64,000 nt of DNA, taken from Escherichia phage JES2013. Shown here piece after piece: positions 11,881-61,851 of this stretch. The translations under genes and the position numbers were made by a program. Where the stretch lies: sequence record KC690136. One strand, written 5' to 3'. The notes under the pieces are model-generated. The model was not told the DNA's origin and made no database searches. It was given only the letters and a program-made list of their open reading frames with translations. How positions within the stretch are numbered: the stretch's first letter is position 1; every line of letters starts with the position of its first letter.

Positions 11881-12792
11881 TTATTTCCCGTTAACTTTGT
11901 TGTAGTTTCCCTGCTCAGAGGGGACTATGGTAGAAGGTCTTCCATATTCCTGATAATACCAATCCGCAGCCGATTGGGTAACACCGTTTTCATCTGTCCA
12001 CATCATAGATTTGTATGGCTGCCACTCCTCTGCAGCGTTTGTGGATGCAGTGTCTGCGAATGCTCCTGTGTCCCTCTTGTTACCTACGTTACTACCATTC
12101 TTACAGTCGTTGACAGCACCTTTTTGCTGGGTTTTGCCTACTTTCTTAGGATTGCTGTATACAGTTGCATTAACAACCTTATTCAAGTAGAATGTGCGGA
12201 ACTCTGTAAGTTCTACATCAAACACCATTGCAGCGCCTTCACCAACAGACTTGTTGGCAGAAAGACTGGTTATGATGTAGTTCTCAAGAAGTCTCTCCTC
12301 GGTAACCAAAGAAACCAACTGTCGTTTATTGATAATCTCAGTCAAAGCCTCCAATGCAGCGCCTGGTCGCATAGATGCTGCAGGGTTTTTAGAGTCAGTA
12401 TTCCTATCGATGTAGTTTTGCTCATAGATTATGTGTGGGGACGTATTTACCCTACCAGTAAAAGAAAATACACCATCTTTAATTACAGCGTGGTCTGACA
12501 GGGTAGATTTATCTTCCACCGCAAACCCAGTCTTATCAACAGAATGTTTGAAAGAGTAATTCTCAACCTGATCGAAGATAATGGCAAGATCGTTAGTAAA
12601 GTTTTTACCCTTCATCTCCGTATTGCGACCGCCATAGTTAAGACCGCTGACAAACATAGTGTACTTTACATCGCTTTCAGTTTGCTGCTCTGCCTTTTCA
12701 GCCTTTGGAGATTTAACCTCTTGAGGCTTGTACAGGTCTTTTTCATCAACTATATTGCTTGGCATAACCTCTCCAGGACACTCCGATACCAT
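11881..12792 (-). CDS. hypothetical tail protein (distal tail/baseplate)
   Basis: 303-aa ORF immediately downstream of tape measure gene. Confidence 0.45.
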   Translation of the reverse strand: MVSECPGEVMPSNIVDEKDLYKPQEVKSPKAEKAEQQTESDVKYTMFVSGLNYGGRNTEMKGKNFTNDLAIIFDQVENYSFKHSVDKTGFAVEDKSTLSDHAVIKDGVFSFTGRVNTSPHIIYEQNYIDRNTDSKNPAASMRPGAALEALTEIINKRQLVSLVTEERLLENYIITSLSANKSVGEGAAMVFDVELTEFRTFYLNKVVNATVYSNPKKVGKTQQKGAVNDCKNGSNVGNKRDTGAFADTASTNAAEEWQPYKSMMWTDENGVTQSAADWYYQEYGRPSTIVPSEQGNYNKVNGK

Positions 12793-21212: not shown

Positions 21213-22235
21213 TTATTCACTTTTCAGAGTTACTTTAACAACCAGCTCTGGGCGGGTGTTAACTGCCAGCATGGAAGTTTCAGATTCGATTTTCTGTTCT
21301 CTCAGGTAGGCAGAGTGTTTATACCACATATACAGCTCTTGAGCTGGGGTATTTGCATCTTCCAGAGTGTCAGCCGGAGCAAAGTGCAGCTGGAACATCT
21401 GATCGATACCCATAGGCATCAGACGAGCCTCACCGTCCGGAATGTTGCCAGAGATGTCTTCGATGAAGGTCATACCCTTGTGTTCAAACACACGGTAAAT
21501 GCTCTGTTCACCACCTGCACCCAGACGACGACGCAGCGGTTCCTGAGAAGAGCTGTAGTAGGTGTAAGCCAGCTCTACCAGCGGGTGATGAACCAGTGCT
21601 GAGAAGAATTTCGGAGAGCACAGCGCGATGATGTTATAAGCACCAGCGTTGTCACCAGCCTGCAGAGCAATGTGCAGACGTGCATCTTCGATTACTTCCA
21701 TCGGGTCCTGTGCTGCATTTTTAGGATCGATTTCGATAGATTTCTGGGAAACGCCCCACAGTTTGTAATAGTCATACTGACAGGTGGTGTCGCCAGGGGC
21801 ATATGATTTACCCAGAACTGCAGCAAACAGCGCTTTTTCACGCAGAGTTTCGTGGGTCAGACGGATACGACGAACCACACGGGTAACTACGTCCTGAACA
21901 GTTTTCGGTGCATCAGGGGTGAAGTAGCGACGGAAGTTCTGAACATCCGCAGCGGTGATGCCTTTATCCAGCGGGAAGAACGGGATGTTCAGGTTTTTGA
22001 TCTGAGCACGTTCGCTACCAACGTAGTTACGTTCACCACCACGGCGACGTGCAGCAATATCACCAACCACTTCATCTACACGTTCAATCTGTGCGATTGT
22101 TGAGGTGCCTAGATGAGTTTCAAACAGATCCATACCAGTGATCAGTCGGAATTGGCGCGGAACCAGTTCAAGAGTAGCACCTAAATCAACAATACCAAAA
22201 TCATCTTTACGGGTGTTAGCCATTATTTTCTCCAA
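21213..22235 (-). CDS. major capsid protein (lambda gpE-like family suspected)
   Basis: 340 aa; follows scaffold and decoration-like genes; strong terminator downstream; R-x-R-G-G and YKGM-like motifs recalled from gpE family. Confidence 0.6.
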   Translation of the reverse strand: MEKIMANTRKDDFGIVDLGATLELVPRQFRLITGMDLFETHLGTSTIAQIERVDEVVGDIAARRRGGERNYVGSERAQIKNLNIPFFPLDKGITAADVQNFRRYFTPDAPKTVQDVVTRVVRRIRLTHETLREKALFAAVLGKSYAPGDTTCQYDYYKLWGVSQKSIEIDPKNAAQDPMEVIEDARLHIALQAGDNAGAYNIIALCSPKFFSALVHHPLVELAYTYYSSSQEPLRRRLGAGGEQSIYRVFEHKGMTFIEDISGNIPDGEARLMPMGIDQMFQLHFAPADTLEDANTPAQELYMWYKHSAYLREQKIESETSMLAVNTRPELVVKVTLKSE

Positions 22236-22269: not shown

Positions 22270-22644
22270 TTATTCCTGAACTTTGTTGCCTTTGGCTTCA
22301 AGCGCTGCCAGAACTGCTTCAGCTGCCGCTGTGCCGCCAGCAACTTTCAAATGAGCTTTAGCGAAGGTTACACCGCGAACAGCAACAACCAGCTTGTACT
22401 TCTCGCCAACTTTCAGCGGTTCTGCAAGATTTACACGACCAGCAGAGTCGGGCAGAAGCGCACGGTCAACCAGCACACCAAAGGTGTCTGAACCATCTTG
22501 ATTAGCCAGAGTACCGGTTTTGGTAACTACTGCGCCAGCAACGTGATCAGCAGTGAGAGTGATTTCAATTTCTTTAAAGTTGAAACCTGCATCGCTAGAA
22601 TCAACTTTGCCGAGCACGATATCAGAATATTGAGTGGTGATCAT
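22270..22644 (-). CDS. putative head decoration / capsid-associated protein
   Basis: 124-aa ORF immediately upstream of major capsid gene; assignment by position. Confidence 0.35.
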   Translation of the reverse strand: MITTQYSDIVLGKVDSSDAGFNFKEIEITLTADHVAGAVVTKTGTLANQDGSDTFGVLVDRALLPDSAGRVNLAEPLKVGEKYKLVVAVRGVTFAKAHLKVAGGTAAAEAVLAALEAKGNKVQE

Positions 22645-22665: not shown

Positions 22666-23646
22666 TTATTTATTGGATTCTTTACGTGCGCGAGCCAGAG
22701 CTTTAGCGACGTTTTCAGCAATAATGTCTTCAGCAGATTTAGCAATGTCGTCCACCACGACATCACCATCTTTACCTTGCTCTGTGGTTGCGAACTCTTC
22801 TTTAGCTTTTTCAACTTTAGCTTCCAGTTCAGCAATACGAGCTTGAGCTTTTTCCAGCAATTCAACAACAGGGGCGTTAGCTTTATCCAGCATGAATTCG
22901 ACCAGAGGTGCGTGGTCTTCTTCAGTGGTGAAGCTTAACGCCTGAGCTTTTTCCAGCATTTTAGCTTTTTCAACTTCTACCTGAGCCTTGATGATTTCTT
23001 CAGCTTTTTCATTGGTAGCTTTCAGTTCTTCGAACTGTTTCAGCAGGTCCAGGTACTCTTGAGACTTGGTTACGTCTTCCACCGGATTCTCCTCGGTATT
23101 TGCGGATTTATCAACATTGTCCACAGCGTCTGTAACAACTTCTTCTGTGGTTTCCTGTGCCGCTTTAATAAGTTTCCCTTCTTCATCGAAGAGATCAGCG
23201 GTCATCTGCTCAAAAACTTGTTGGGTTTTCAACAGAGTGTATTGGTCAACAATACTTAAATCTTTACCTTCTTTAGCAGCTTTGTGAATGGTTACGTTAT
23301 CACAACGTTCTTCTAACCACTGCACACAAGCCTCTGCATCAGCCTGTGCCCACTCCCAATCTGGGTGTTCTTTTGCCCAAGCTTCTTCCTCAATCTCGAA
23401 CCCAAGCAGGTGAGCCAGTGCCTTAGCATCGTCATACCACATATCGAAAAAACGACGCAGGTATTCTTCAAAGCTAAGTTCAACAGTAACTTGGCGAAGA
23501 GCCTTAACGATATCCTCTGTTAACTGCTCGGGCTTAAGATCGCTCTTCATTAAAAGAGATACAGGCCTATTGTTAGCGCTATAGCCTTGCGCCTTGTGGC
23601 ACAGGGCAATCCCTTTCTCTTTAATAGTGATTGTTTTTTCAGACAT
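22666..23646 (-). CDS. putative scaffold protein
   Basis: 326 aa, highly acidic, long coiled-coil-like E/K/A-rich C-terminal half; between protease-like and capsid genes. Confidence 0.5.
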   Translation of the reverse strand: MSEKTITIKEKGIALCHKAQGYSANNRPVSLLMKSDLKPEQLTEDIVKALRQVTVELSFEEYLRRFFDMWYDDAKALAHLLGFEIEEEAWAKEHPDWEWAQADAEACVQWLEERCDNVTIHKAAKEGKDLSIVDQYTLLKTQQVFEQMTADLFDEEGKLIKAAQETTEEVVTDAVDNVDKSANTEENPVEDVTKSQEYLDLLKQFEELKATNEKAEEIIKAQVEVEKAKMLEKAQALSFTTEEDHAPLVEFMLDKANAPVVELLEKAQARIAELEAKVEKAKEEFATTEQGKDGDVVVDDIAKSAEDIIAENVAKALARARKESNK

Positions 23647-24077
23647 TACTCATTGCCCTCTTCTACAACACTGATCCCGAAGTTTACGTTGGTGATCTCG
23701 CCAGTTTCTTCATCAACATTGCCAGTTGCCTGAATGCTTAGTCCACCAACAATGCCAGCCTTCTTAGCTTCCCATAATTCAGGATTGTTGTATTTAACTT
23801 TAGCAACCCAAGAGCCAGCCTTGATGACCTGCTCAGTACCAATTACCACAACATCAAACTCTTCTTGAATCCACGTCTTTTCAATAGTGAATGCATCTGT
23901 GGAGGTCAAGTGGAAAAGGTTTTCAGAAACTAGGCCTGCGGCGTATGCTGCGTCCCAATTATCTTTAGCCTTTTTGATGGTGTCTTTACTCATCCACTCA
24001 CCGTGAGCGTCTTTAGTGTCCGGTTCGTAGATGATTTCGTAGGAAATCATTTCTTCCTGTGGCATCTTATTCCCCAT
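23646..24077 (-). CDS. putative prohead protease / XkdF-like protein
   Basis: ORF between portal and scaffold; start trimmed to internal Met (MGNKMPQEE) to avoid overlap with portal; motif match recalled, not verified. Confidence 0.3.
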   Translation of the reverse strand: MGNKMPQEEMISYEIIYEPDTKDAHGEWMSKDTIKKAKDNWDAAYAAGLVSENLFHLTSTDAFTIEKTWIQEEFDVVVIGTEQVIKAGSWVAKVKYNNPELWEAKKAGIVGGLSIQATGNVDEETGEITNVNFGISVVEEGNE

Positions 24078-24132: not shown

Positions 24133-25689
24133 TTAATTTTCCATGTTGGATATGGAATTATCTCTGGTTGATGACATCTTAGAAGTGCCGTTGCCAGTGG
24201 ATCCTGCAGCCATACCATCACCAGCCCTGCTGATATCCTGGCCCAAGAGCTTCATCAGCTCTTCTTGATCCATGTCTTCGTCAAATCTTTCATCAAACCC
24301 GCCTACTTCAAGAATCTTATTAATTACTGCAGGAGTTTTTGGCAAGTAACCTACAGCACCGATCCTCTGGACAAACTTGGAGAAGCTCTCCATGTCCACT
24401 TCTTCAATCAGACCAGGTTTCAGTTTAGGCATATCATCATCTTCAAGGATGATACCATTCAATGCCAGAAGCTGTGGAATAAGATCCTTATTGAAGGCTT
24501 CAGTGATAATATCTATATCACGCTGAACAAAATGACCATGGATAGACTGTTTTGACTCAGACAGAGAGAAGGATCCAACGTTATCGTTACCGAGGTTAAT
24601 AAAGCCAGCACCGAAACGGTCAAGAATCGCCTTCTTACGGGCATCGATCAAATCTTTAGTGGAATATTGCTTACCCATACCGTCAACCCCCTTCAGGGTC
24701 ATGGAGTAAAGCTCTTTACCAGACTTATCTCTATCAGACGGAAGTATAAAGAAACTTTGCTCACCACTATGGGCGTTTGCTGCGTCAAGCATAAGGTCTG
24801 CAACCATTCTCCCTTCCATTGAATTCGGGTCAATACTGGCCTTGTTCAAAATATTGGAAGGAATTTTCAGCTCAAGCACCCCACCAAGGTCTTTGGAACA
24901 GCCAACAACCTCAAGGTTTTCAATCAGAACTTTCTCACGGAAAGATCTGTAGCAACCTATCATCGGTGACACACCTGCAGGGTTAGATTCTGTTCCTGAC
25001 AGGGTCATGAGCATAAGCTTTTTAGCAGGGATGAAAATTTCAGGCTCATTAAAGCCTTTTGAAGGCATTGCAGCAAGAGGTCCAGCCCAGCGTGCATTCT
25101 GAGTGTTTAGAAATGCATTAGGTGACTGATAAATACCTGTCAGTGTTCTACTATTCTTGTCAAAGACAAACGGCTCTGATCTGGACAAACTGGCCTGAGG
25201 TCGGAATGCAATTTTATCAATAAGAAGCATCCCGGCATATTTACCTTCTTTCTCTCTGCGGTATACTTTCTCAAACAGTGAAAAACCATACTCGTTAAAG
25301 GTAGCTGCGCTTCTTGCAATATCCCGAAGGGTTTGTTGGTTTGCCAAATTACGCAAAGAATACTCTATAAGCTCGGCAGCTTTCTTAGAGTCTTCACTTT
25401 TAACATTATAAAGGATCTTAAAATCATTGAATGCTTTCGTGATGAAAACATATTTTGTATCTAAGGCAGTAGCAACTGTGGAATCACATTTCATAGTCTC
25501 CACTGTGGCAATCAGCTGAGGCCAACGCAATTCCTCAACCATCATAGATTGCGATTCTGCCATAATTTGGGAAAGTGCGCCAGAACCGATCTCACTCATA
25601 CGAACATTATGAGTTGGTGCGCCTGCGTTCCCAGATTTATTCACAGTTTTGGCTGTGGCGTTGTGTTTCCTGCGGTTCTTTTTGGACAC
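24133..25689 (-). CDS. portal protein
   Basis: 518-aa ORF directly downstream of terminase large subunit. Confidence 0.6.
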   Translation of the reverse strand: MSKKNRRKHNATAKTVNKSGNAGAPTHNVRMSEIGSGALSQIMAESQSMMVEELRWPQLIATVETMKCDSTVATALDTKYVFITKAFNDFKILYNVKSEDSKKAAELIEYSLRNLANQQTLRDIARSAATFNEYGFSLFEKVYRREKEGKYAGMLLIDKIAFRPQASLSRSEPFVFDKNSRTLTGIYQSPNAFLNTQNARWAGPLAAMPSKGFNEPEIFIPAKKLMLMTLSGTESNPAGVSPMIGCYRSFREKVLIENLEVVGCSKDLGGVLELKIPSNILNKASIDPNSMEGRMVADLMLDAANAHSGEQSFFILPSDRDKSGKELYSMTLKGVDGMGKQYSTKDLIDARKKAILDRFGAGFINLGNDNVGSFSLSESKQSIHGHFVQRDIDIITEAFNKDLIPQLLALNGIILEDDDMPKLKPGLIEEVDMESFSKFVQRIGAVGYLPKTPAVINKILEVGGFDERFDEDMDQEELMKLLGQDISRAGDGMAAGSTGNGTSKMSSTRDNSISNMEN

Positions 25690-25791: not shown

Positions 25792-26913
25792 TTAGATAAA
25801 ACGCTTGAACATAGAAGGTGATGAGATTGATGGAATCACACAAGGAAGTGCTACCTCCTCTTTCTCCAGGAAATTAATCGCAGAAGCTACACAGTCGGCC
25901 CAGTCGTCTTTCCTGTTAAATGTTGATCTTTCCCCGTTGAATTTTTCAAGTTCAGTCAGAAATGCTTCCAGAGTATCAGGATGGAAACTGGATTTTACAA
26001 TCCTAACCATTCCTTGTTGGGCAAGATTGGCAAAAGGTGAGAACCTTGTCAGTTTAGATTTGTTGGAAGGCATTGGGTCTTCTTCAACCCTAAACCCTTC
26101 GGCGAGCAAGGATCTGGAGGATGTTAAGAACTCACTCTTACCTGCCTGACCGGGGTCCACAGAGAATACGATTATACAATCATCACCATCAAACTGCGCC
26201 TGTTTCCTGATGATCACATCTCGTTCACCAGCCTTTTTACAGAACTTGCCTTCCAGACCTGTGGAATACCTCCCGTCATCCACGTTCTCAGGACAATAAT
26301 CACCGGACAGGTAATAAAAGCCGTCGCTATCTTTACTTACCTTAACACTGGCGGTAAAGTCAGGAAATTTATTACCGGAAGTTCTCTCGGTTCCTGCCTT
26401 ATCCCATGCCCTGCAAGATACTGATCCAAGGGGTACTCTATCGGCATCACGAAGGAAAGATCTTTGAAAATAGTTTGCACCCTCAGGCTTTGCAAACCAG
26501 TTGCCATGAAGAAGCTGGGCTTTTTCAAGCTCGGGCAGACCTTCAAGAAAAGCAAGGTATTCTGGGTTGTCTCTCAAGCAGACAGGATTATCGAAGATTG
26601 TTGCGCCTATAAACGAGAATGACAACGGTCTTGGCTTGATCTCTACACCAAGTCCGTTAACCGTGGTGTATTTCTCTATCAACTCTTCCTTAGAGTCTCC
26701 CCAAATAAATTCACCGTCGCGTCGGATAAAATATCTTTTCTTACCGCATTTCTCCGGATCTGGATACCCTTCATCGTCCAACCACCATCTAACCAGTTTG
26801 GCAAGCATGTGTTCTGAATCTGGGTTACAGCTGATAACCATTCTTGATGGATACTTTGACTGAGATCGCAGACGAGACATCAGGTAGTCTATCTGTTCCC
26901 ATTCGAATTGTGT
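25792..26913 (-). CDS. terL: terminase large subunit, exon 2 (nuclease domain)
   Basis: C-terminal DDWADCVASAINF motif typical of terminase nuclease domain; in-frame stop only at 26917-26919, so exon can begin at 26913. Confidence 0.65.
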   Translation of the reverse strand, partial: TQFEWEQIDYLMSRLRSQSKYPSRMVISCNPDSEHMLAKLVRWWLDDEGYPDPEKCGKKRYFIRRDGEFIWGDSKEELIEKYTTVNGLGVEIKPRPLSFSFIGATIFDNPVCLRDNPEYLAFLEGLPELEKAQLLHGNWFAKPEGANYFQRSFLRDADRVPLGSVSCRAWDKAGTERTSGNKFPDFTASVKVSKDSDGFYYLSGDYCPENVDDGRYSTGLEGKFCKKAGERDVIIRKQAQFDGDDCIIVFSVDPGQAGKSEFLTSSRSLLAEGFRVEEDPMPSNKSKLTRFSPFANLAQQGMVRIVKSSFHPDTLEAFLTELEKFNGERSTFNRKDDWADCVASAINFLEKEEVALPCVIPSISSPSMFKRFI

Positions 26914-27796
26914 CGTTTATGTTCAGGCAAGGTCGCTAGTCTTGCCCCGCCATTTTCAGGCAGCTGCATGTCTCCATGCAGACCAGACTATATCTTATGA
27001 ATGTGTAAATACTCTGCCGCTCTAAGAATAGTTTCCTCATCTTCTTGGAAGAAACCTAAAGCTCTGTTGCATTTATCACAAAGCAACCCTCTTACAGCAC
27101 CAGTTTTATGGTCATGATCAACACAAAAGAAATCTCTGTACCCTTGCGTCCTATACTCATCGAGAGATATTCTACAAATGGCACACTTATGATCTTGATC
27201 TGAGAGTAGACGATAGTATTCATCTTTTGTTATGTGAAATTTCTTCTCAATCTGATAAAACTTTTCACACATCTTACACCTGTTCGTAACCAGATATACT
27301 TTACCATAGTCACGTTTTGTGTAAAAACTATCAGCGAGCATACTTTCATGACAAGATTTGCATTCAAAAAGTTCACCTTTCTTCAGCAAGTCTTGAATAA
27401 ATAATGCTGCGTCATCTCTCTTAACCATATTTTTGTTTTTACGAGATCCACCCTTCCTGTAGTACATATAGCATTCCTTGCATGTACCTGAGTATCCATC
27501 CTTGCTCTTAGATGATAAAAAGAAATCATCAATAGGTAGAACTCTTTGGCAATCCATACATTTTTTAGTATTACACATTCACCCTCCCGTTTCGAATCGC
27601 TTGATTCTACGTCTTTCGACTAGTCGTTGAACGTTCATCCTCTCGGATGCTTCGCTGCGGATTATCTAAACTAACACACTGTTACCATACCTTCGATCTC
27701 TCTTCGAAGCCTCTATCATGTTACCATGACAGGTTGGTGGTGTCAATAATAAAGATTTCCCCGCAATTAGGGAGGTTTTACGAGAGCTACAAATTA
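26914..27796 (-). mobile_element. group I intron interrupting terL, with embedded HNH homing endonuclease ORF
   Basis: Minus-strand conserved elements P (AATTGCGGGGAAA, ~27768-27756), Q (AATCCGCAGCG, ~27663-27653), R (GTTCAACGACTAGTC, 27632-27618), S (AAGATATAGTCT, ~26996-26985); candidate guide GCTCTC pairs with exon end GAGGGT; exact 3' boundary uncertain. Confidence 0.7.
26988..27578 (-). CDS. HNH homing endonuclease (Endonuclease VII family) encoded within the intron
   Basis: 196 aa; CxxC pairs plus DHDHKTGAVRGLLCDKCNRALG motif (T4 Endo VII-like); strong RBS GGGAGGG; stop codon lies inside the S element. Confidence 0.75.
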   Translation of the reverse strand: MCNTKKCMDCQRVLPIDDFFLSSKSKDGYSGTCKECYMYYRKGGSRKNKNMVKRDDAALFIQDLLKKGELFECKSCHESMLADSFYTKRDYGKVYLVTNRCKMCEKFYQIEKKFHITKDEYYRLLSDQDHKCAICRISLDEYRTQGYRDFFCVDHDHKTGAVRGLLCDKCNRALGFFQEDEETILRAAEYLHIHKI

Positions 27797-28222
27797 ACCC
27801 TCATCGAAGCAAACCATGGTGTACTCAAGCCCTTGATGGTTAAGCTTATCTTGTACATACTCCATGTGGCAGTATTTTACAACAGCTCCCTTTTTGCTTC
27901 TATCCCACTTGCCAGTGTTCGGATCAAACCGTGGAAAAATGAACTTATGATCCTTCTCTCTGAACTTTGGCTTAATGTTTTCAGGCAGATCGCTATAAAT
28001 AGCTACTGCTTTAGGCCATAGTCCACCCTCACCTTCCAACTGTGGGGTTGTTCTTCGGAACATAACCACAGAGCTGTGGGGGTCATCAATAATTTTAAGT
28101 GGCATCAACTGCAAGAGAAACGACTTGCCAGACCCTGCGGCACCGCCGATTACCAAAATATCTGCATCGTTTTCGAGGATCATCTTCTGCTTTTCAGAAC
28201 ACGGTCCGTAAATCTTAGACAT
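27797..28222 (-). CDS. terL: terminase large subunit, exon 1 (ATPase domain)
   Basis: Walker A GGAAGSGKS and Walker B MVCFDE; ORF stops right after Walker B with TAA that would be the first intron nucleotides. Confidence 0.7.
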
Positions 28223-32780: not shown

Positions 32781-33335
32781 TTACTCCCCGCTGTCAATAG
32801 CAAAACTCATTGCAATACGGTATGCTTCTTCTAATGGTAAGAGTCTCCCCCACACATCCCAACCGACATCAAGCTGCCTGCCAAACAACTGTTGTGTGGT
32901 TCCGTGAGCATGACCGAACAGTTGGACTGATCCATGAGGCTTTCTGTTCCACTTTGCAAACTGGTAATGGCTCATACAGATCAAATTCTTGTTGTGGCGA
33001 AGCTCGTAATAATCTACAACCTCGTGATAGAACTCTTTCATAATTCTGACAGTCGTCCTTGTGTCATGGTTGCCACGAACAAGAATAATATGTCCGTTCA
33101 ACATATTTAGAATATCCGGGAGTAAGTTGTTGATATTCTTATCATTAGTGCACGCAATATCTCCCAAGTGGAACACAGTGTCTGCAGGTGACACAACAGA
33201 GTTCCACTCGGCGATGATTCCTGCATTCATACTGTCAAGATTGTGATCATACTGAGATCTGTGTTTTTGACATGAATCAAACTCCATGACCCGCTGGTGG
33301 AGAAAGTGTGTGTCGCTTGTTACAAAGTATTTCAT
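32781..33335 (-). CDS. metallophosphoesterase (calcineurin-like phosphatase)
   Basis: Motifs DxH (VTSDTHF), GDxxD-like (HLGDIA), GNHD (RGNHD), GHxH (FGHAHG); start trimmed to Met preceded by GAGGA RBS. Confidence 0.65.
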   Translation of the reverse strand: MKYFVTSDTHFLHQRVMEFDSCQKHRSQYDHNLDSMNAGIIAEWNSVVSPADTVFHLGDIACTNDKNINNLLPDILNMLNGHIILVRGNHDTRTTVRIMKEFYHEVVDYYELRHNKNLICMSHYQFAKWNRKPHGSVQLFGHAHGTTQQLFGRQLDVGWDVWGRLLPLEEAYRIAMSFAIDSGE

Positions 33336-33342
33336 ACATTCC

Positions 33343-33753
33343 TCATTTAAGTTTAATGCAGTTTTTAAGCTGGCGTTCCATACGATCCACAACCCTGTCT
33401 GGAACATCATGAATGCTTTTATTACCGTGGCGGTTTTCAACCACGATCACGGTATAACTATACCCATGACTGATTGCCATGTCAACATATTCCTGCACAT
33501 GTTTTTCTTTTGTAAACGTATTACTTACCACGATACGGTCGTATCCCATACGCATCATATCTTCTACGTTATCTTTGCACCATTTTGCTGCGAGTGTTAC
33601 TTTACTTGCATCCCAGTTGTAATTGCCGTCATCGTCATACCAGAACATGTCGTTCTCAAAATGTGGATACAGACCTTCTAAAGATAGCGCATTTGCCAGT
33701 GTTGATTTGCCAGACCCTGGCAGACCACGCACGATATATAGCATTTTAGACAT
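33343..33753 (-). CDS. P-loop kinase, polynucleotide kinase-like
   Basis: Walker A GLPGSGKST at N-terminus similar to T4 Pnk kinase domain (GCPGSGKST); start at Met after GGAGG RBS. Confidence 0.55.
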   Translation of the reverse strand: MSKMLYIVRGLPGSGKSTLANALSLEGLYPHFENDMFWYDDDGNYNWDASKVTLAAKWCKDNVEDMMRMGYDRIVVSNTFTKEKHVQEYVDMAISHGYSYTVIVVENRHGNKSIHDVPDRVVDRMERQLKNCIKLK

Positions 33754-33871
33754 AGCAATCCTCCGTTTTAATTTTAATGATAGTATACCTAACTGTTTTG
33801 TTAATTTCAAGTGTTGACACTAGGTTATTTGTGTGGCAGGATAGACTGACAAAATGACAAATGAGGAACGT

Positions 33872-34789
33872 ATGATGAAGTATTTTAATGCAGACGATCT
33901 AGTTGACAAAGGTCTTGTAACCAGCAGATATTACCCAGATCTTGGATTAAAGATTTATAAATATGCCAGAAAAGTATTTTACAACAATTTATGGCATTTG
34001 TCCCCTCGTTTGCTGGAGTGCCGAGGCATTGTTGTCGGTAATGAAGGAAATGTTGTGGCATGGCCCTTCACAAAAGTGTTTAACTTGGGAGAAAATCACA
34101 CCAACCTGCCTGACAATAAGCTTGTGACGGCGGTAGAGAAAAAGAACGGATTCCTCGGTGTGGTGTCATCTCATAAAGGTGAACTATTGTTCTCAACAAC
34201 CGGATCTCTTGATTCCCCATATTGTAACCTCGCAAAGGAAACCATCCGGGAGCAATGTGGTAATTTAGATCTTATCAAGAAGGTTATGGGCAATGAAAAC
34301 ATGACATTCATGTTTGAAATTTGTCACCCTTCAGATCCGCATATTGTTCAGGAAGATCATGGCGCATATTTGATAGGTTGCAGATATAATGATTCTGGAA
34401 TAATGCTACCAGAAGCAGCTTTAGATGGGATTGCCAAATACCTTGGCGCAAAACGTCCTCACACTGTGCGTGAAATTCCGTTCAGCTATGCAAAAGAATT
34501 GGCTGCAGAAACAAGAGGTGAAGGGTATATGATTCGTAAGCCTTACTACCCTTATGATCTGCAGCTGAAGATCAAGTCTCCATACTATCTGGCACGGAAG
34601 GCCGTAATGAGGGGTAAAGCTTGGAAGATTTGGGATGATGATATCTTTAAACGTGTTGACGAAGAGTTTTACGGCATGGTAAACTTCATTCGTAGCAATT
34701 ACACAGAAGATGTGTGGAACTGCCTACTGGAGCAGGAACGCAGGGAGATACTCGACCACTATTTCCACAACGAGGACTATATGCAATGA
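33872..34789 (+). CDS. putative RNA ligase (Rnl1/tRNA-ligase-like nucleotidyltransferase)
   Basis: Candidate ligase motifs: I KKNG (VEKKNGFLG), IV EGYMIRK, V LQLKIK; start chosen at ATG with GAGGA RBS (track ORF begins at 33854). Confidence 0.5.
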   Translation: MMKYFNADDLVDKGLVTSRYYPDLGLKIYKYARKVFYNNLWHLSPRLLECRGIVVGNEGNVVAWPFTKVFNLGENHTNLPDNKLVTAVEKKNGFLGVVSSHKGELLFSTTGSLDSPYCNLAKETIREQCGNLDLIKKVMGNENMTFMFEICHPSDPHIVQEDHGAYLIGCRYNDSGIMLPEAALDGIAKYLGAKRPHTVREIPFSYAKELAAETRGEGYMIRKPYYPYDLQLKIKSPYYLARKAVMRGKAWKIWDDDIFKRVDEEFYGMVNFIRSNYTEDVWNCLLEQERREILDHYFHNEDYMQ

Positions 34790-35136
34790 AGAAGTTGATT
34801 GTGTGGCTGGATGATTTGAGAGATCCGTCAAATTATGGACTCCCAGACGCTGTTTGGCTGAAGAATTCCTCCGAGTTTATGGATTTTATTAACGATAAGG
34901 GAAAGCTCTACAGACGCGTTTCTGAGTGGCATATGGACAACGACCTAGGAGAAGTATTCGAAGGATATGATTGCCTATCCATGTTGGAGGAAAAATTTGT
35001 ATTCGGTAAGCCTCCCGTGGTTGACAACGTGAAGATTTTCGTACATACTTCTAATCCATCAGCGGCTCGTAAATTCATGCTTGCAGCTGACTCGTTTAAA
35101 AAGTTTGGAATAGAGATTAAACAAAACATCTACTGA
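34786..35136 (+). CDS. hypothetical small alpha/beta protein (possible receiver-like fold), partner of Sir2 gene
   Basis: 116 aa; ATGA overlap with upstream ligase gene; LIVWLDD and VHTSNP segments; no confident family assignment. Confidence 0.35.
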   Translation: MKKLIVWLDDLRDPSNYGLPDAVWLKNSSEFMDFINDKGKLYRRVSEWHMDNDLGEVFEGYDCLSMLEEKFVFGKPPVVDNVKIFVHTSNPSAARKFMLAADSFKKFGIEIKQNIY

Positions 35137-55542: not shown

Positions 55543-55572
55543 TTGACAAAGCTTTGTTTAGATAGGTATAAT
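55543..55572 (+). promoter_or_regulatory. strong sigma70 consensus promoter
   Basis: TTGACA (55543-55548), 18-nt spacer, TATAAT (55567-55572). Confidence 0.6.
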
Positions 55573-56102: not shown

Positions 56103-56891
56103 ATGGGTCGAGCTAAAGAAACAAAACGCATGCGTGATGAAGCTAGAGAGGCTCGCAAATCTGATCGCCTGCGTAAGGCTGCTGAGAAATTTGCTGACGA
56201 AAGAGAGCACACCGCTCCAGCTCTCCGACCAATGAATAAGAAGCAGCAAAAGTATCTTGATTATCTAGGGTCACGTAAGATTATCATTGTAAACGGTGTG
56301 TTTGGATCTGGTAAGACATTCATGGCATCTGCCTATGCAGGTGATCTTCTGCGTAAGAACGAGATTGATAAGATCATTGTTGCACGTCCTTACGTTCAGA
56401 CAGGAAAGACTTCAGGATTTAAACCTGGAAATGCAATGCAGAAACTGTGGCCCTATCTTCGAAGCATGATGGACACGATTTGTCGTCGTGTTGGCAAAGG
56501 TGCTTTTGCCGCAATGCTGGGAGACGGTCAGAACAGCCGTATCGAGATTTGTGAGGTTGAAAGCATTCGTGGTCGTAGTTTCGATGAGCGATGCTTTGTC
56601 CTGATTGACGAGGCACAGCAAACTAACCCTGAAGAAATGTTGTCAATTATCACAAGGATCTCTGATCAGGCCACCCTTGTAATTATGGGCGATAATAGCC
56701 AACGTGACATCCCTGGTAAATCTGGCCTTGCATGGGTGACGGATTTCTTTACTCGTCATCCAGATCCTGAGGTTGGAATGATCAGCTTTGATAGTCCAGA
56801 CGATGTTGTTCGTTCCGGGTTGGGTCGTCAGATTGCACTCAATCTTATTGAGGATCGTGCAAATCATATTTGGACCCCTGTTTCCGAGTAA
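56103..56891 (+). CDS. phoH: PhoH-like ATPase
   Basis: Walker A GVFGSGKTF and PhoH-family layout. Confidence 0.75.
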   Translation: MGRAKETKRMRDEAREARKSDRLRKAAEKFADEREHTAPALRPMNKKQQKYLDYLGSRKIIIVNGVFGSGKTFMASAYAGDLLRKNEIDKIIVARPYVQTGKTSGFKPGNAMQKLWPYLRSMMDTICRRVGKGAFAAMLGDGQNSRIEICEVESIRGRSFDERCFVLIDEAQQTNPEEMLSIITRISDQATLVIMGDNSQRDIPGKSGLAWVTDFFTRHPDPEVGMISFDSPDDVVRSGLGRQIALNLIEDRANHIWTPVSE

Positions 56892-56935: not shown

Positions 56936-56964
56936 TTGACAAACAGGTAAGATTTAGATATTAT
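56936..56964 (+). promoter_or_regulatory. sigma70-like promoter
   Basis: TTGACA (56936-56941), 17-nt spacer, TATTAT (56959-56964); preceded by hairpin GGGTGG TTAT TCCACCC. Confidence 0.5.
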
Positions 56965-56994: not shown

Positions 56995-57306
56995 ATGGCT
57001 ACAATACAAGAGAGACTGAATAAAATATACTGCCTGTTTGTCTATAACGGCGAGACAATTTTGGCAAATAAAGGATCCAAGAATGTGTGGATCAAGGACA
57101 GGGGTGGTAATATAATCAACTTAGCGTTGCTACGTGAGCGCCGACACAGATTCTTTATCGAGTCTCGGATTATTGAAAGCAGCACCTGCTACAGAACAGG
57201 CGATAAAGTAATTGTTGACAATGATACGTGGTATGTGGTAGACTGGCAATCATTGAGCTGTGATGCTTCTGACAATCGTAAGTATTCCCTAGTGATTGCT
57301 AAATAA
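56995..57306 (+). CDS. hypothetical protein
   Basis: 103-aa ORF with GGAGAAGGAG RBS. Confidence 0.45.
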   Translation: MATIQERLNKIYCLFVYNGETILANKGSKNVWIKDRGGNIINLALLRERRHRFFIESRIIESSTCYRTGDKVIVDNDTWYVVDWQSLSCDASDNRKYSLVIAK

Positions 57307-57366: not shown

Positions 57367-58416
57367 ATGAATTTAACACCTCGCAGCACCATGGTACACG
57401 GCATGAAAGAAAAACAGAACGGTTTCGAACCTATGAGTAATAAAATGTTTGGTATGCCGGGTGGTATTATGGAAACATACAGCTACCCAACACCTGTTGT
57501 TGACCACGTTCTTTATATCGACGATTTGGAAGACTTACAAGATCATATGTCTCGTCTGCAGACGATCCGTATGGCTCAGCCGGAAGAAAGCATTCGGGTG
57601 ATCATCAATAGCCCTGGGGGTTGCGTGCACATTGCAATGGCTTATCTGCAGGCATTCCGCGAGTCTCAGGCAAGCGTTGTTGCACATGCTGAAGGGATGT
57701 GCTGCTCTGCTGGAACAATCTTATGGCTTGGTTGTAAAGAACGTACTGTGGCTCCGGACACAGAGTTTATGTTCCACTACTATCAAGGTGGCACTTATGG
57801 TAACGGTGTGAACATGAATACTCAGGTCAGCTACTGGAAAAAACGTTTTGAACGCCTGATCGAAAAATACTACGGTGGGGTGCTGACAGAAGATGAGATC
57901 GCATCCATCACAGCTGGTGGCGAAGTGTGGTTGGACGGAGAAGAGCTGGCAGCACGCACTGGAGCTATTATTCTGGATGAAGGCAACATACAACGCATCC
58001 AGAACGGACAAAAACCGAAAAAGCTTCTGGCAAAAGGTGATGAAGAAGGCGTGTTAGGTGAAGCAGGTCTTCCGGAGATTCACCAGTGCACATCTTTAGA
58101 TGAGTTAGTTCATGCTGTTGAATCTGCAAAAGCGGGTGGTTCGAAAGGTGATGTTCACACTGTGTTCCTGAATCTGCAGATGGAAAGTGGCGAGACCGTC
58201 AGAATTGCCCTGGGTGAGATTACTTCAGAAGATCTGCAGAGATTCTCTGTCGTTGAACTTCAGGATATTCTGTCTCAATTGAAGACTACTCTGAACGGCG
58301 GTGAAGAGGTTAAGGTGAAAGATAAGACGCGCAAGCGTCTGGTGGACAATATTATTAAAACAGCAAAAGAGCTCAATGAAAAAATCCTGGGTGCAGGAAT
58401 TGTCGAAGAAGCTTAA
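57367..58416 (+). CDS. ClpP-like serine protease with ~150-aa C-terminal extension
   Basis: ClpP signature INSPGG, Ser in MCCSAG, His in FMFHYYQGG; located in early region far from head genes. Confidence 0.55.
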   Translation: MNLTPRSTMVHGMKEKQNGFEPMSNKMFGMPGGIMETYSYPTPVVDHVLYIDDLEDLQDHMSRLQTIRMAQPEESIRVIINSPGGCVHIAMAYLQAFRESQASVVAHAEGMCCSAGTILWLGCKERTVAPDTEFMFHYYQGGTYGNGVNMNTQVSYWKKRFERLIEKYYGGVLTEDEIASITAGGEVWLDGEELAARTGAIILDEGNIQRIQNGQKPKKLLAKGDEEGVLGEAGLPEIHQCTSLDELVHAVESAKAGGSKGDVHTVFLNLQMESGETVRIALGEITSEDLQRFSVVELQDILSQLKTTLNGGEEVKVKDKTRKRLVDNIIKTAKELNEKILGAGIVEEA

Positions 58417-58428
58417 ACATTAATTCTA

Positions 58429-58451
58429 AAGCCCTCTTCGGAGGGCTTTTA
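58429..58451 (+). terminator. rho-independent terminator
   Basis: Hairpin AAGCCCTC TTCG GAGGGCTT followed by TTTAT. Confidence 0.6.
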
Positions 58452-58467
58452 TGATCTGGAGATTTGC

Positions 58468-59001
58468 ATGACTTGTGCTAGAAAACCTGATGAACAACGT
58501 AACGCCTACGATGAGTATGTGACACCGGAGTGGTGTGCAGAAGGGCTGTATGACCTTATTCCGTTCCCAGAAGACTGGACCTACTTAGAGCCTTGCAGGA
58601 ATAGTGCCTCAGGTGTGTTCTACTCCCGTATGCCGTTAGGATCTGCATGGGGAGAAATCCAAGAAGGTGTTGACTATCTGAATACAGAATACAACCATGT
58701 TGACTGTATTATCACCAACCCGCCGTACAGCCTGGCTCGTGAGTTTGTGGACAAGGCGTTGAAAGATGCCGACGTAGTTATTATGCTTTTGCGTCTTAAT
58801 TTTCTGGAAAGCAAGGCCAGATTTGAATGGTGGCTTGATAATGCACCTACCACTGTGATCACAATATCTAAGCGCCCGTCATTCCAATCCAATGGTAGAA
58901 CGGATGGGCAGGCATATGCATATTTTGTATGGGACAAGAAAAACCGTCTAGACTTGCCGCCATTTATGTGGTTGGCACCACCAGAGGCAGATTTGAAATG
59001 A
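58468..59001 (+). CDS. DNA N6-adenine methyltransferase (small, phage Dam-like)
   Basis: Motif IV NPPY (ITNPPYS) in a 177-aa protein. Confidence 0.55.
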   Translation: MTCARKPDEQRNAYDEYVTPEWCAEGLYDLIPFPEDWTYLEPCRNSASGVFYSRMPLGSAWGEIQEGVDYLNTEYNHVDCIITNPPYSLAREFVDKALKDADVVIMLLRLNFLESKARFEWWLDNAPTTVITISKRPSFQSNGRTDGQAYAYFVWDKKNRLDLPPFMWLAPPEADLK

Positions 59002-61393: not shown

Positions 61394-61851
61394 CGATGTT
61401 TGTTAAATATGTAAAAACGTGCCTCAACAGCCTTGGCAGAGAGCATTGGTACACCTTGCTTGAAAAAGGAGAGATTTTAACAAAATCTGGAAAGATAACT
61501 TTGATACCTCTTGACAGTAAAGACCCGTCACTACTTGTTATAGATGATTACGTTACAGGTGTGACGTTCGAGGTCTCTGTGGAGAGGTTAATACGCAGAG
61601 CTGGCGGCCCTTGTGATCAAAGAGAGTATGTTTTCGATTCCGTTACAGAGAGGGATCATCCGTCTTTAATGTTCAGGATGGTAATCAGAGATATGAGGTC
61701 ATCTATAGATAGGATCGTAAAGGACATTAAGGAACCTTTTAGAGTAAAAGTTAAGAAGTTTTTTGATTCTAAGATTAACATACTTGCCGTTGTGCTAGGC
61801 GTAATTCAACTTCTGTTAATTTTGCACTATTTTGAACTGTTGTCTAAGTAG
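61390..61851 (+). CDS. hypothetical protein with C-terminal TM anchor
   Basis: 153 aa; C-terminal ILAVVLGVIQLLLILHYF. Confidence 0.45.
   Translation: MTMFVKYVKTCLNSLGREHWYTLLEKGEILTKSGKITLIPLDSKDPSLLVIDDYVTGVTFEVSVERLIRRAGGPCDQREYVFDSVTERDHPSLMFRMVIRDMRSSIDRIVKDIKEPFRVKVKKFFDSKINILAVVLGVIQLLLILHYFELLSK

Follow-up and report, generated by a model that had tools for sequence, protein, structure and literature searches.

The cellular ClpP peptidases (MEROPS S14, E. coli ClpP), the SppA and NfeD peptidases (MEROPS S49), which are membrane-associated and use a Ser-Lys dyad, and the ClpP-related head maturation proteases of phages (NF045542; PHROGs 1684, 94, 2976, and 133; lambda gpC-type) are described systems with which the gene analysed here can be compared. 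The head maturation proteases are ATP-independent enzymes with a ClpP fold, lacking unfoldase-docking features and often carrying C-terminal extensions. Most stand-alone phage genes annotated as “Clp protease” encode proteins of 180 to 260 residues with a Ser-His-Asp triad, in which the Asp is preceded by Lys or Arg. Literature searches retrieved no study of what stand-alone ClpP-like proteins do in phages that encode them, and no biochemical or genetic data on any member of this family.

The window analysed here is a stretch of 64,000 nucleotides from Escherichia phage JES2013 (sequence record KC690136), a Vequintavirus of the rV5-like type. The ClpP-fold serine peptidase gene is located on its plus strand at 57367..58416, with an ATG start, and encodes 349 amino acids plus stop. 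It corresponds to gp122 of phage rV5, for which Kropinski et al. 2013 (PMC3606486, Table S3) give the name “ClpP (ATP-dependent) protease subunit”. The gene is found at 80% nucleotide identity or above in 117 phage records, and E. coli O157 typing phage 4 carries a 100% identical copy annotated as clpP. The gene is thus already known, as rV5 gp122, and over 100 genomes carry it under the annotation ClpP. The earlier note had described a stand-alone ClpP-like protease with a long C-terminal extension, and we find the same: the protease has a ClpP fold, stands alone in the non-structural arm, and bears a long tail, and its open reading frame carries the three motifs quoted there in the order given, namely, IINSPGG (residues 79 to 85), MCCSAG (residues 111 to 116, with Ser114), and FMFHYYQGG (residues 134 to 142, with His137). 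Inspection of the sequence shows an AAGGA Shine-Dalgarno sequence 5 nt before the ATG at 57367, which was retained as the start because of this element and because the longer N-terminus is common to the genus. The alternative start at Met23 (57433), prompted by the start of the PHROG alignment, has no Shine-Dalgarno sequence. A PADLOC search for a relation to defence or anti-defence gave no matches. Eighteen unannotated “Campylobacter phage” records (MG0656xx, host C. jejuni) contain a gene 99.3 to 99.6% identical to the one described here and have rV5-like genome lengths; their C. jejuni host labels look doubtful, perhaps resulting from contamination or mis-assignment.

The ClpP/crotonase fold is present in the core of the protein (57499..57981, plus strand, residues 45 to 205). 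The Pfam family CLP_protease matches above its gathering score (E 2.1e-12), more than 100 solved ClpP chains are matched in phmmer searches, and the Pfam families NfeD1b_N and SDH_protease remain below threshold. The strongest PHROG match is to PHROG 5410, named “ATP-dependent protease” (E 4.9e-155, residues 24 to 345), and the core also matches PHROG 1827 (E 2.6e-40), which by sequence places the protein in the stand-alone phage “Clp protease” family PHROG 5410/1827. ICP1 gp211, PaoP5_045, KIL1_0031, PHROG 1827, and many BFVD entries share the same subfamily core with invariant Ser and His. Outside this family, the nearest relatives are the ClpP-related head maturation proteases, with PHROG 1684 matching residues 70 to 256 (E 8.7e-22) and Clp_rel_HeadMat (NF045542) being the top NCBIfam match at 60.4 bits (E 2e-16), against a cutoff of 120.

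Several features separate the protein from canonical ClpP, with which it shares about 17 to 19% identity. The NCBIfam clpP equivalog TIGR00493 scores 33.2 bits against a cutoff of 308.6, and the protein falls far under the cutoff of every ClpP model in NCBIfam, including the PRK ClpP models. We compared the catalytic residues in a family alignment of 71 non-identical members plus E. coli and S. aureus ClpP. Ser and His are invariant in this alignment, and the core studied here retains the predicted nucleophile Ser114 (codon 57706-57708, plus strand) and the predicted general base His137 (codon 57775-57777, plus strand). The position of ClpP Asp171 is taken by Glu186 (codon 57922-57924, plus strand), so that the full Ser-His-Asp triad is not present. 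Among the 71 members, this position is Asp in 55, Gln in 12, and Glu in 4, and the Vequintavirinae account for all 12 Gln and half of the Glu. The Arg or Lys before it (Arg170 in ClpP) has also become Gly in the Vequintavirinae, giving Gly-Glu here and Gly-Gln in most of them. The change from Asp to Gln or Glu could mean a reduced or altered activity.

The regions through which ClpP contacts its unfoldases differ as well. The hydrophobic docking pocket of E. coli ClpP for the IGF/IGL loops of ClpX and ClpA, consisting of Y60, Y62, F82, I90, M92, F112, and L114, aligns with R77, I79, E99, H107, E109, T127, and A129, and by this alignment the positions are conservatively polar or charged across the phage family. 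The N-terminal region (57367..57498, plus strand, residues 1 to 44) is predicted to be disordered and contains conserved FG-x-PG and YSYP motifs; residues 1 to 41 have a pLDDT below 50 in the predicted model, and no helix precedes the first strand. The Pro-rich YSYPTPV segment aligns where ClpP has its axial loops and helix A, for which there is no alignable counterpart, and most family members have just 10 to 25 residues ahead of the core. ClpX, ClpA, and Lon are not encoded by rV5. Taken with the curated scores, the triad change, the polar pocket, and the missing axial loops and helix A, this leaves the label “ATP-dependent Clp protease proteolytic subunit”, which has spread over well more than 100 phage records, unsupported by the sequence, and judged in this way the protein is not a bona fide ClpP. 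It further differs from cellular ClpP in being phage-encoded within a nucleotide-metabolism module and in its extra 145-residue tail, and from SppA and NfeD in keeping the His and in lacking both a signal peptide and a transmembrane segment. For rV5, a single AAA+ protein is listed, gp4 (rV5 genome 2920-4104), which is annotated as an ATPase of the MoxR type, a distant AAA+ protein, and is not linked to the ClpP-like gene.

The core ends near residue 205 and about 145 residues follow, close to the roughly 150 extra residues reported earlier. The tail begins with a linker helix with the pattern (L)LDExNIxRxQxGQxP (57982..58026, plus strand, residues about 203 to 217; helix 205 to 212 in the model), in which L203, N207, I208, and G214 are invariant and D204, R210, and Q212 near-invariant among 17 Vequintavirinae sequences. 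It is followed by an acidic, largely disordered spacer (58027..58158, plus strand, residues 221 to 264, pI 4.6), which differs in length and sequence between genera and has a pLDDT below 50 at residues 223 to 241 and 258 to 262. The last 85 residues (58159..58413, plus strand, residues 265 to 349) form a conserved domain predicted as a beta-hairpin plus three helices, with F293, E297, and R322 being invariant. No fold or sequence match was found for this domain, so that the tail is conserved within its clade yet orphan. All 39 full-length homologues come from Vequintavirinae-type contigs, and the other relatives have 180 to 260 residues with little or no tail. ICP1 gp211, unlike most relatives, has a long tail as well, which was considered as a homologue of the rV5-type tail and rejected (hhalign probability 0.4%). 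Since the ICP1 tail is not homologous and the other relatives are short, long tails were gained independently on a common core. The appearance of the tail in the Vequintavirinae goes along with the disappearance of the Arg/Lys-Asp pair.

The head module is located on the minus strand at about 21.2 to 25.7 kb, on the opposite arm, roughly 33 kb from the ClpP-like gene, in line with the distance of about 34 kb given before. It comprises the portal (24133..25689, PHROG 113), an XkdF-type candidate prohead protease (23646..24077, Pfam Peptidase_S78_2, E 5.1e-18), a scaffold-like protein of 326 amino acids (22666..23646, PHROG 2970), a decoration protein (22270..22644, PHROG 2680), and the major capsid protein (21213..22235, Pfam Phage_cap_E), all on the minus strand. 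The homologue of the scaffold-like protein, rV5 gp62, is flagged with mass spectrometry (MS) evidence in virions. The protease-like gene that the earlier note had seen between portal and scaffold is real and credible, given the S78_2 match, the D-x-H, N-x-F-H, and G-x-S-I motifs shared with PaoP5_054, and the detection of a homologue in virions of the related phage CB7. The distant lineages of rV5, ICP1 (gp125), and PaoP5 all have such a protease between portal and scaffold, and all three share the same head module of portal, S78_2 protease, scaffold, decoration, and Phage_cap_E capsid genes together with a distal ClpP-like gene, which speaks for two proteases that are not redundant.

The start of the XkdF-type open reading frame is ambiguous. 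A GTG at 24221 would give 191 amino acids and overlap the end of the portal gene, and rV5 annotates 190 amino acids, whereas the ATG at 24077 gives 143 amino acids, with the Pfam domain starting at residue 6 of this shorter form. The terminase large subunit seems to be split (25792-28222, minus strand) into an N-terminal P-loop open reading frame (27794..28222) and a C-terminal one (25792..26880), with an HNH-endonuclease-like open reading frame (26988..27578) between the two parts, in agreement with the spliced, intron-bearing TerL described for rV5. The GC skew changes sign near 34 kb (window positions about 33000 to 35000), being negative before and positive after, and it does so where the structural arm on the minus strand gives way to the arm for replication and metabolism on the plus strand.

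On the plus-strand arm, the ClpP-like gene is preceded on the same strand by genes for NrdA, NrdB, glutaredoxin, NrdD, NrdG, and a PhoH-like P-loop ATPase (56103..56891, plus strand, Pfam PhoH, E 3.6e-47), which bears out its placement among nucleotide-metabolism genes. We extended the comparison to 83 related loci, 80 of which came from a pattern scan of IMG/VR and the remaining ones from ICP1, PaoP5, and KIL1. The ClpP-like gene lies amid co-oriented replication or nucleotide-metabolism genes in every one of them, the recurrent neighbours being NrdA, NrdB, RNase H, a PD-(D/E)XK nuclease, DUF6433, and PhoH. None of the recurrent neighbours is a head gene, and head genes are absent from the flanks of about 4.5 kb on each side in all 83 loci. 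ICP1 gp211, PaoP5_045, and KIL1_0031 share this setting, the gene of this family often being 3' of phoH. PhoH is encoded upstream and co-oriented in 42 of the 83 loci and downstream in none; counted by lineages at 80% identity, it is upstream in 21 of 35 informative ones. The order of phoH followed by the ClpP-like gene is kept in rV5, ICP1, and KIL1, with an overlap of 8 nt in KIL1. The linkage could be inherited synteny of the replication module or a functional link.

The ClpP-like gene is the second of a two-gene unit. A sigma-70-type promoter (56936..56964, plus strand) with TTGACA, a 17-nt spacer, and TATTAT, matching 11 of 12 consensus positions in a consensus scan, precedes a small open reading frame of 103 amino acids (56995..57306, plus strand, PHROG 5456), which is the homologue of rV5 gp121. 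A gp121 homologue directly 5' of the ClpP-like gene is restricted to the more closely related loci of the Vequintavirinae. Downstream, an intrinsic terminator (58428..58455, plus strand) consists of a 9-bp GC-rich hairpin, AAGCCCTCT/GGAGGGCTT, followed by a T-run, with a folding energy of -14.7 kcal/mol (z -2.8). Both elements were predicted by the rV5 authors, as P121 (in Table S4) and t122 (PMC3606486), and the small open reading frame and the ClpP-like gene thus form a self-contained unit with its own predicted promoter and terminator. The same authors proposed a separate late-type promoter motif for the structural genes (PMC3606486). A perfect sigma-70 promoter with TTGACA, an 18-nt spacer, and TATAAT (55543-55572, plus strand, 12 of 12 positions), equivalent to rV5 P118, is located just 3' of the nrdG-like gene. 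Directly after the terminator, an open reading frame of 177 amino acids (58468-59001, plus strand) matches only the C-terminal half of the DNA methyltransferase PHROG 799, with sub-threshold matches to the Pfam families EcoRI-methylase and Dam; tblastn places a homologue 3' of the ClpP-like gene in each of the 15 Vequintavirinae loci that the IMG/VR scan returned.

RNA-seq of ICP1 classifies gp211 as “Middle-late”, as it does nrdB and phoH, and the head cluster gp122-126, including the S78_2 protease gp125, as “Late” (PMC7567579, Table S1). The transcriptome papers on PAK_P3 and PAK_P4 do not mention the ClpP-like gene and report that the nucleic-acid-metabolism regions are covered by middle transcripts. 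By analogy with ICP1, the expression of the ClpP-like gene is better described as middle than as early. The “early region” of the earlier note is right as to the non-structural arm and, on the ICP1 data, not as to the timing.

We consider it somewhat more probable than not that the ClpP-like protein is an ATP-independent, non-structural ClpP-fold serine peptidase of the middle phase and that maturation of the prohead falls to the separate XkdF-type protease in the head module. Such a peptidase would work in the infected cytoplasm without ClpX or ClpA, as SppA, NfeD, and the ClpP-type prohead proteases also work independently of ATP, and would cleave unfolded, peptide-like, or specifically recruited proteins. 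Regulatory proteins of host or phage, which the earlier note proposed as targets, might conceivably be among them. The tail of about 145 residues, which would start where the C-terminus of ClpP emerges on the apical face (the domain arrangement of the model being uncertain, with a pTM of 0.51), would most likely be a built-in module for substrate recruitment or gating.

That the protein is instead the capsid maturation protease, or a second one, with a tail that targets capsid or scaffold like lambda gpC/Nu3 or the C-terminus of HK97 gp4, appears unlikely, as the earlier note had already supposed. The closest profiles outside its own family are indeed those of head maturation proteases (PHROG 1684, Clp_rel_HeadMat), but 60 bits is half the NCBIfam cutoff for that group, and prohead proteases classically have a C-terminal extension, while most members of this family are nearly tail-less. 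Considered as a capsid-targeting segment, the tail showed no resemblance to either the scaffold or the XkdF protein of this phage. Unlike the NF045542 proteases, the ClpP-like protein is encoded outside head modules, not adjoining head genes in the 83 loci, has a tail unrelated to scaffold, and coexists with an XkdF-type head protease, which in rV5, ICP1, and PaoP5 keeps conserved His/Ser motifs and the canonical slot from portal to scaffold and which was found in CB7 virions. The predicted sigma-70 promoter on the opposite arm sets the gene apart from the structural genes with their proposed late-type promoters (PMC3606486), and in ICP1 the gene of this family is expressed in the middle phase, before the head cluster, although the Middle-late class comes only shortly ahead of head assembly. 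The ClpP-like gene plays no part in the ICP1 capsid paper. The virion proteome points the same way, rV5 gp122 not being among the proteins flagged with MS evidence, but this carries little weight, since prohead proteases as a rule exit the capsid, and self-digestion and exit would explain the absence of such an enzyme from virions. A search of the rV5 MS peptide table gave no gp122 peptides, but control peptides of gp63 and of the MS-positive gp62 were missing as well, which points to an incomplete table or to differing sequences, and the result was discarded.

The annotation in the databases implies a proteolytic subunit in ClpP-like rings fed by host ClpX or ClpA, by which ATP-dependent proteolysis would be redirected during infection, possibly in mixed rings with host ClpP. 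We regard this as quite improbable in view of the conserved charged or polar docking-pocket positions, the missing axial loops and helix A, the TIGR00493 score of 33 bits, and the bulky C-terminal domain expected at the place where an unfoldase would dock; in addition, the main text of the Keio host-factor screen paper on the rV5-like phage LL12 does not contain the words clpX, clpA, clpP, lon, or protease. A pseudo-protease, in which the Vequintavirinae protein has lost efficient catalysis and binds or sequesters its targets, with the tail as the real function, would fit the finding that the third triad residue and the one next to it are altered just in the clade with the acquired tail. However, Ser114, His137, INSPGG, CSAGT, and FMFH-x-YQGG are invariant in all Vequintavirinae genera at 40 to 70% identity, which is hard to explain without catalysis, and other hydrolases achieve catalysis with a Ser-His dyad or a Ser-His-Glu triad, so that we hold this to be very unlikely. 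The least probable of the readings, in our view, is a phage-specific ATP-dependent degradation pair of the ClpP-fold peptidase and the upstream PhoH-like ATPase. The upstream, never downstream, position of phoH in half of the loci and in most lineages, the overlap in KIL1, the order kept in rV5, ICP1, and KIL1, and the Middle-late class of both genes in ICP1 would agree with such a pair, but inherited synteny of the replication module explains the pattern equally well. About 40% of the lineages, and PaoP5, have no adjacent PhoH, at least one unrelated gene usually lies between, e.g., the PD-(D/E)XK nuclease, and here the predicted promoter at 56936..56964 separates both genes. PhoH-family proteins are, moreover, connected with the metabolism of RNA or nucleic acids, and phoH occurs in many phages without a ClpP-like protease.

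What is new here are the defined departures from ClpP and the membership in a widespread, uncharacterised phage protease family linked to replication modules; we regard the result as a lead, not a discovery. If the protein is the cytoplasmic, ATP-independent peptidase that we favour, a large and widely distributed group of lytic phages, made up of rV5-, ICP1-, PAK_P-, and KIL-like phages along with many marine viruses, carries a dedicated protease that differs from the capsid protease and needs no host unfoldase. Several members of this group serve as model systems or are candidates for therapy, and since ICP1 is amenable to genetics, the function can be tested directly. One concrete hypothesis comes from the frequent linkage to phoH, a gene in wide use as a viral marker: the PhoH ATPase, or another phage factor bound to the tail, might deliver substrates to a ClpP-fold peptidase that is independent of ClpX and ClpA. 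We give this little credence; if true, it would describe a private degradation machine of the middle phase, for example, for removing host defence or regulatory proteins.

Two further genes downstream of the ClpP-like gene deserve mention. The homologue of rV5 gp133, at about 61396-61851 on the plus strand (12030-12485 in locus L001), encodes 151 amino acids with one transmembrane segment, and the rV5 paper lists gp133 among the predominant virion proteins detected by MS, although its gene lies in the non-structural arm, surrounded by small open reading frames of the early or middle type. A homologue of hpf, the ribosome hibernation promoting factor, is annotated at 15523-15840 in L001 (KP869102 124452-124769), a few kb 3' of the ClpP-like gene and just past the 3' end of the window.
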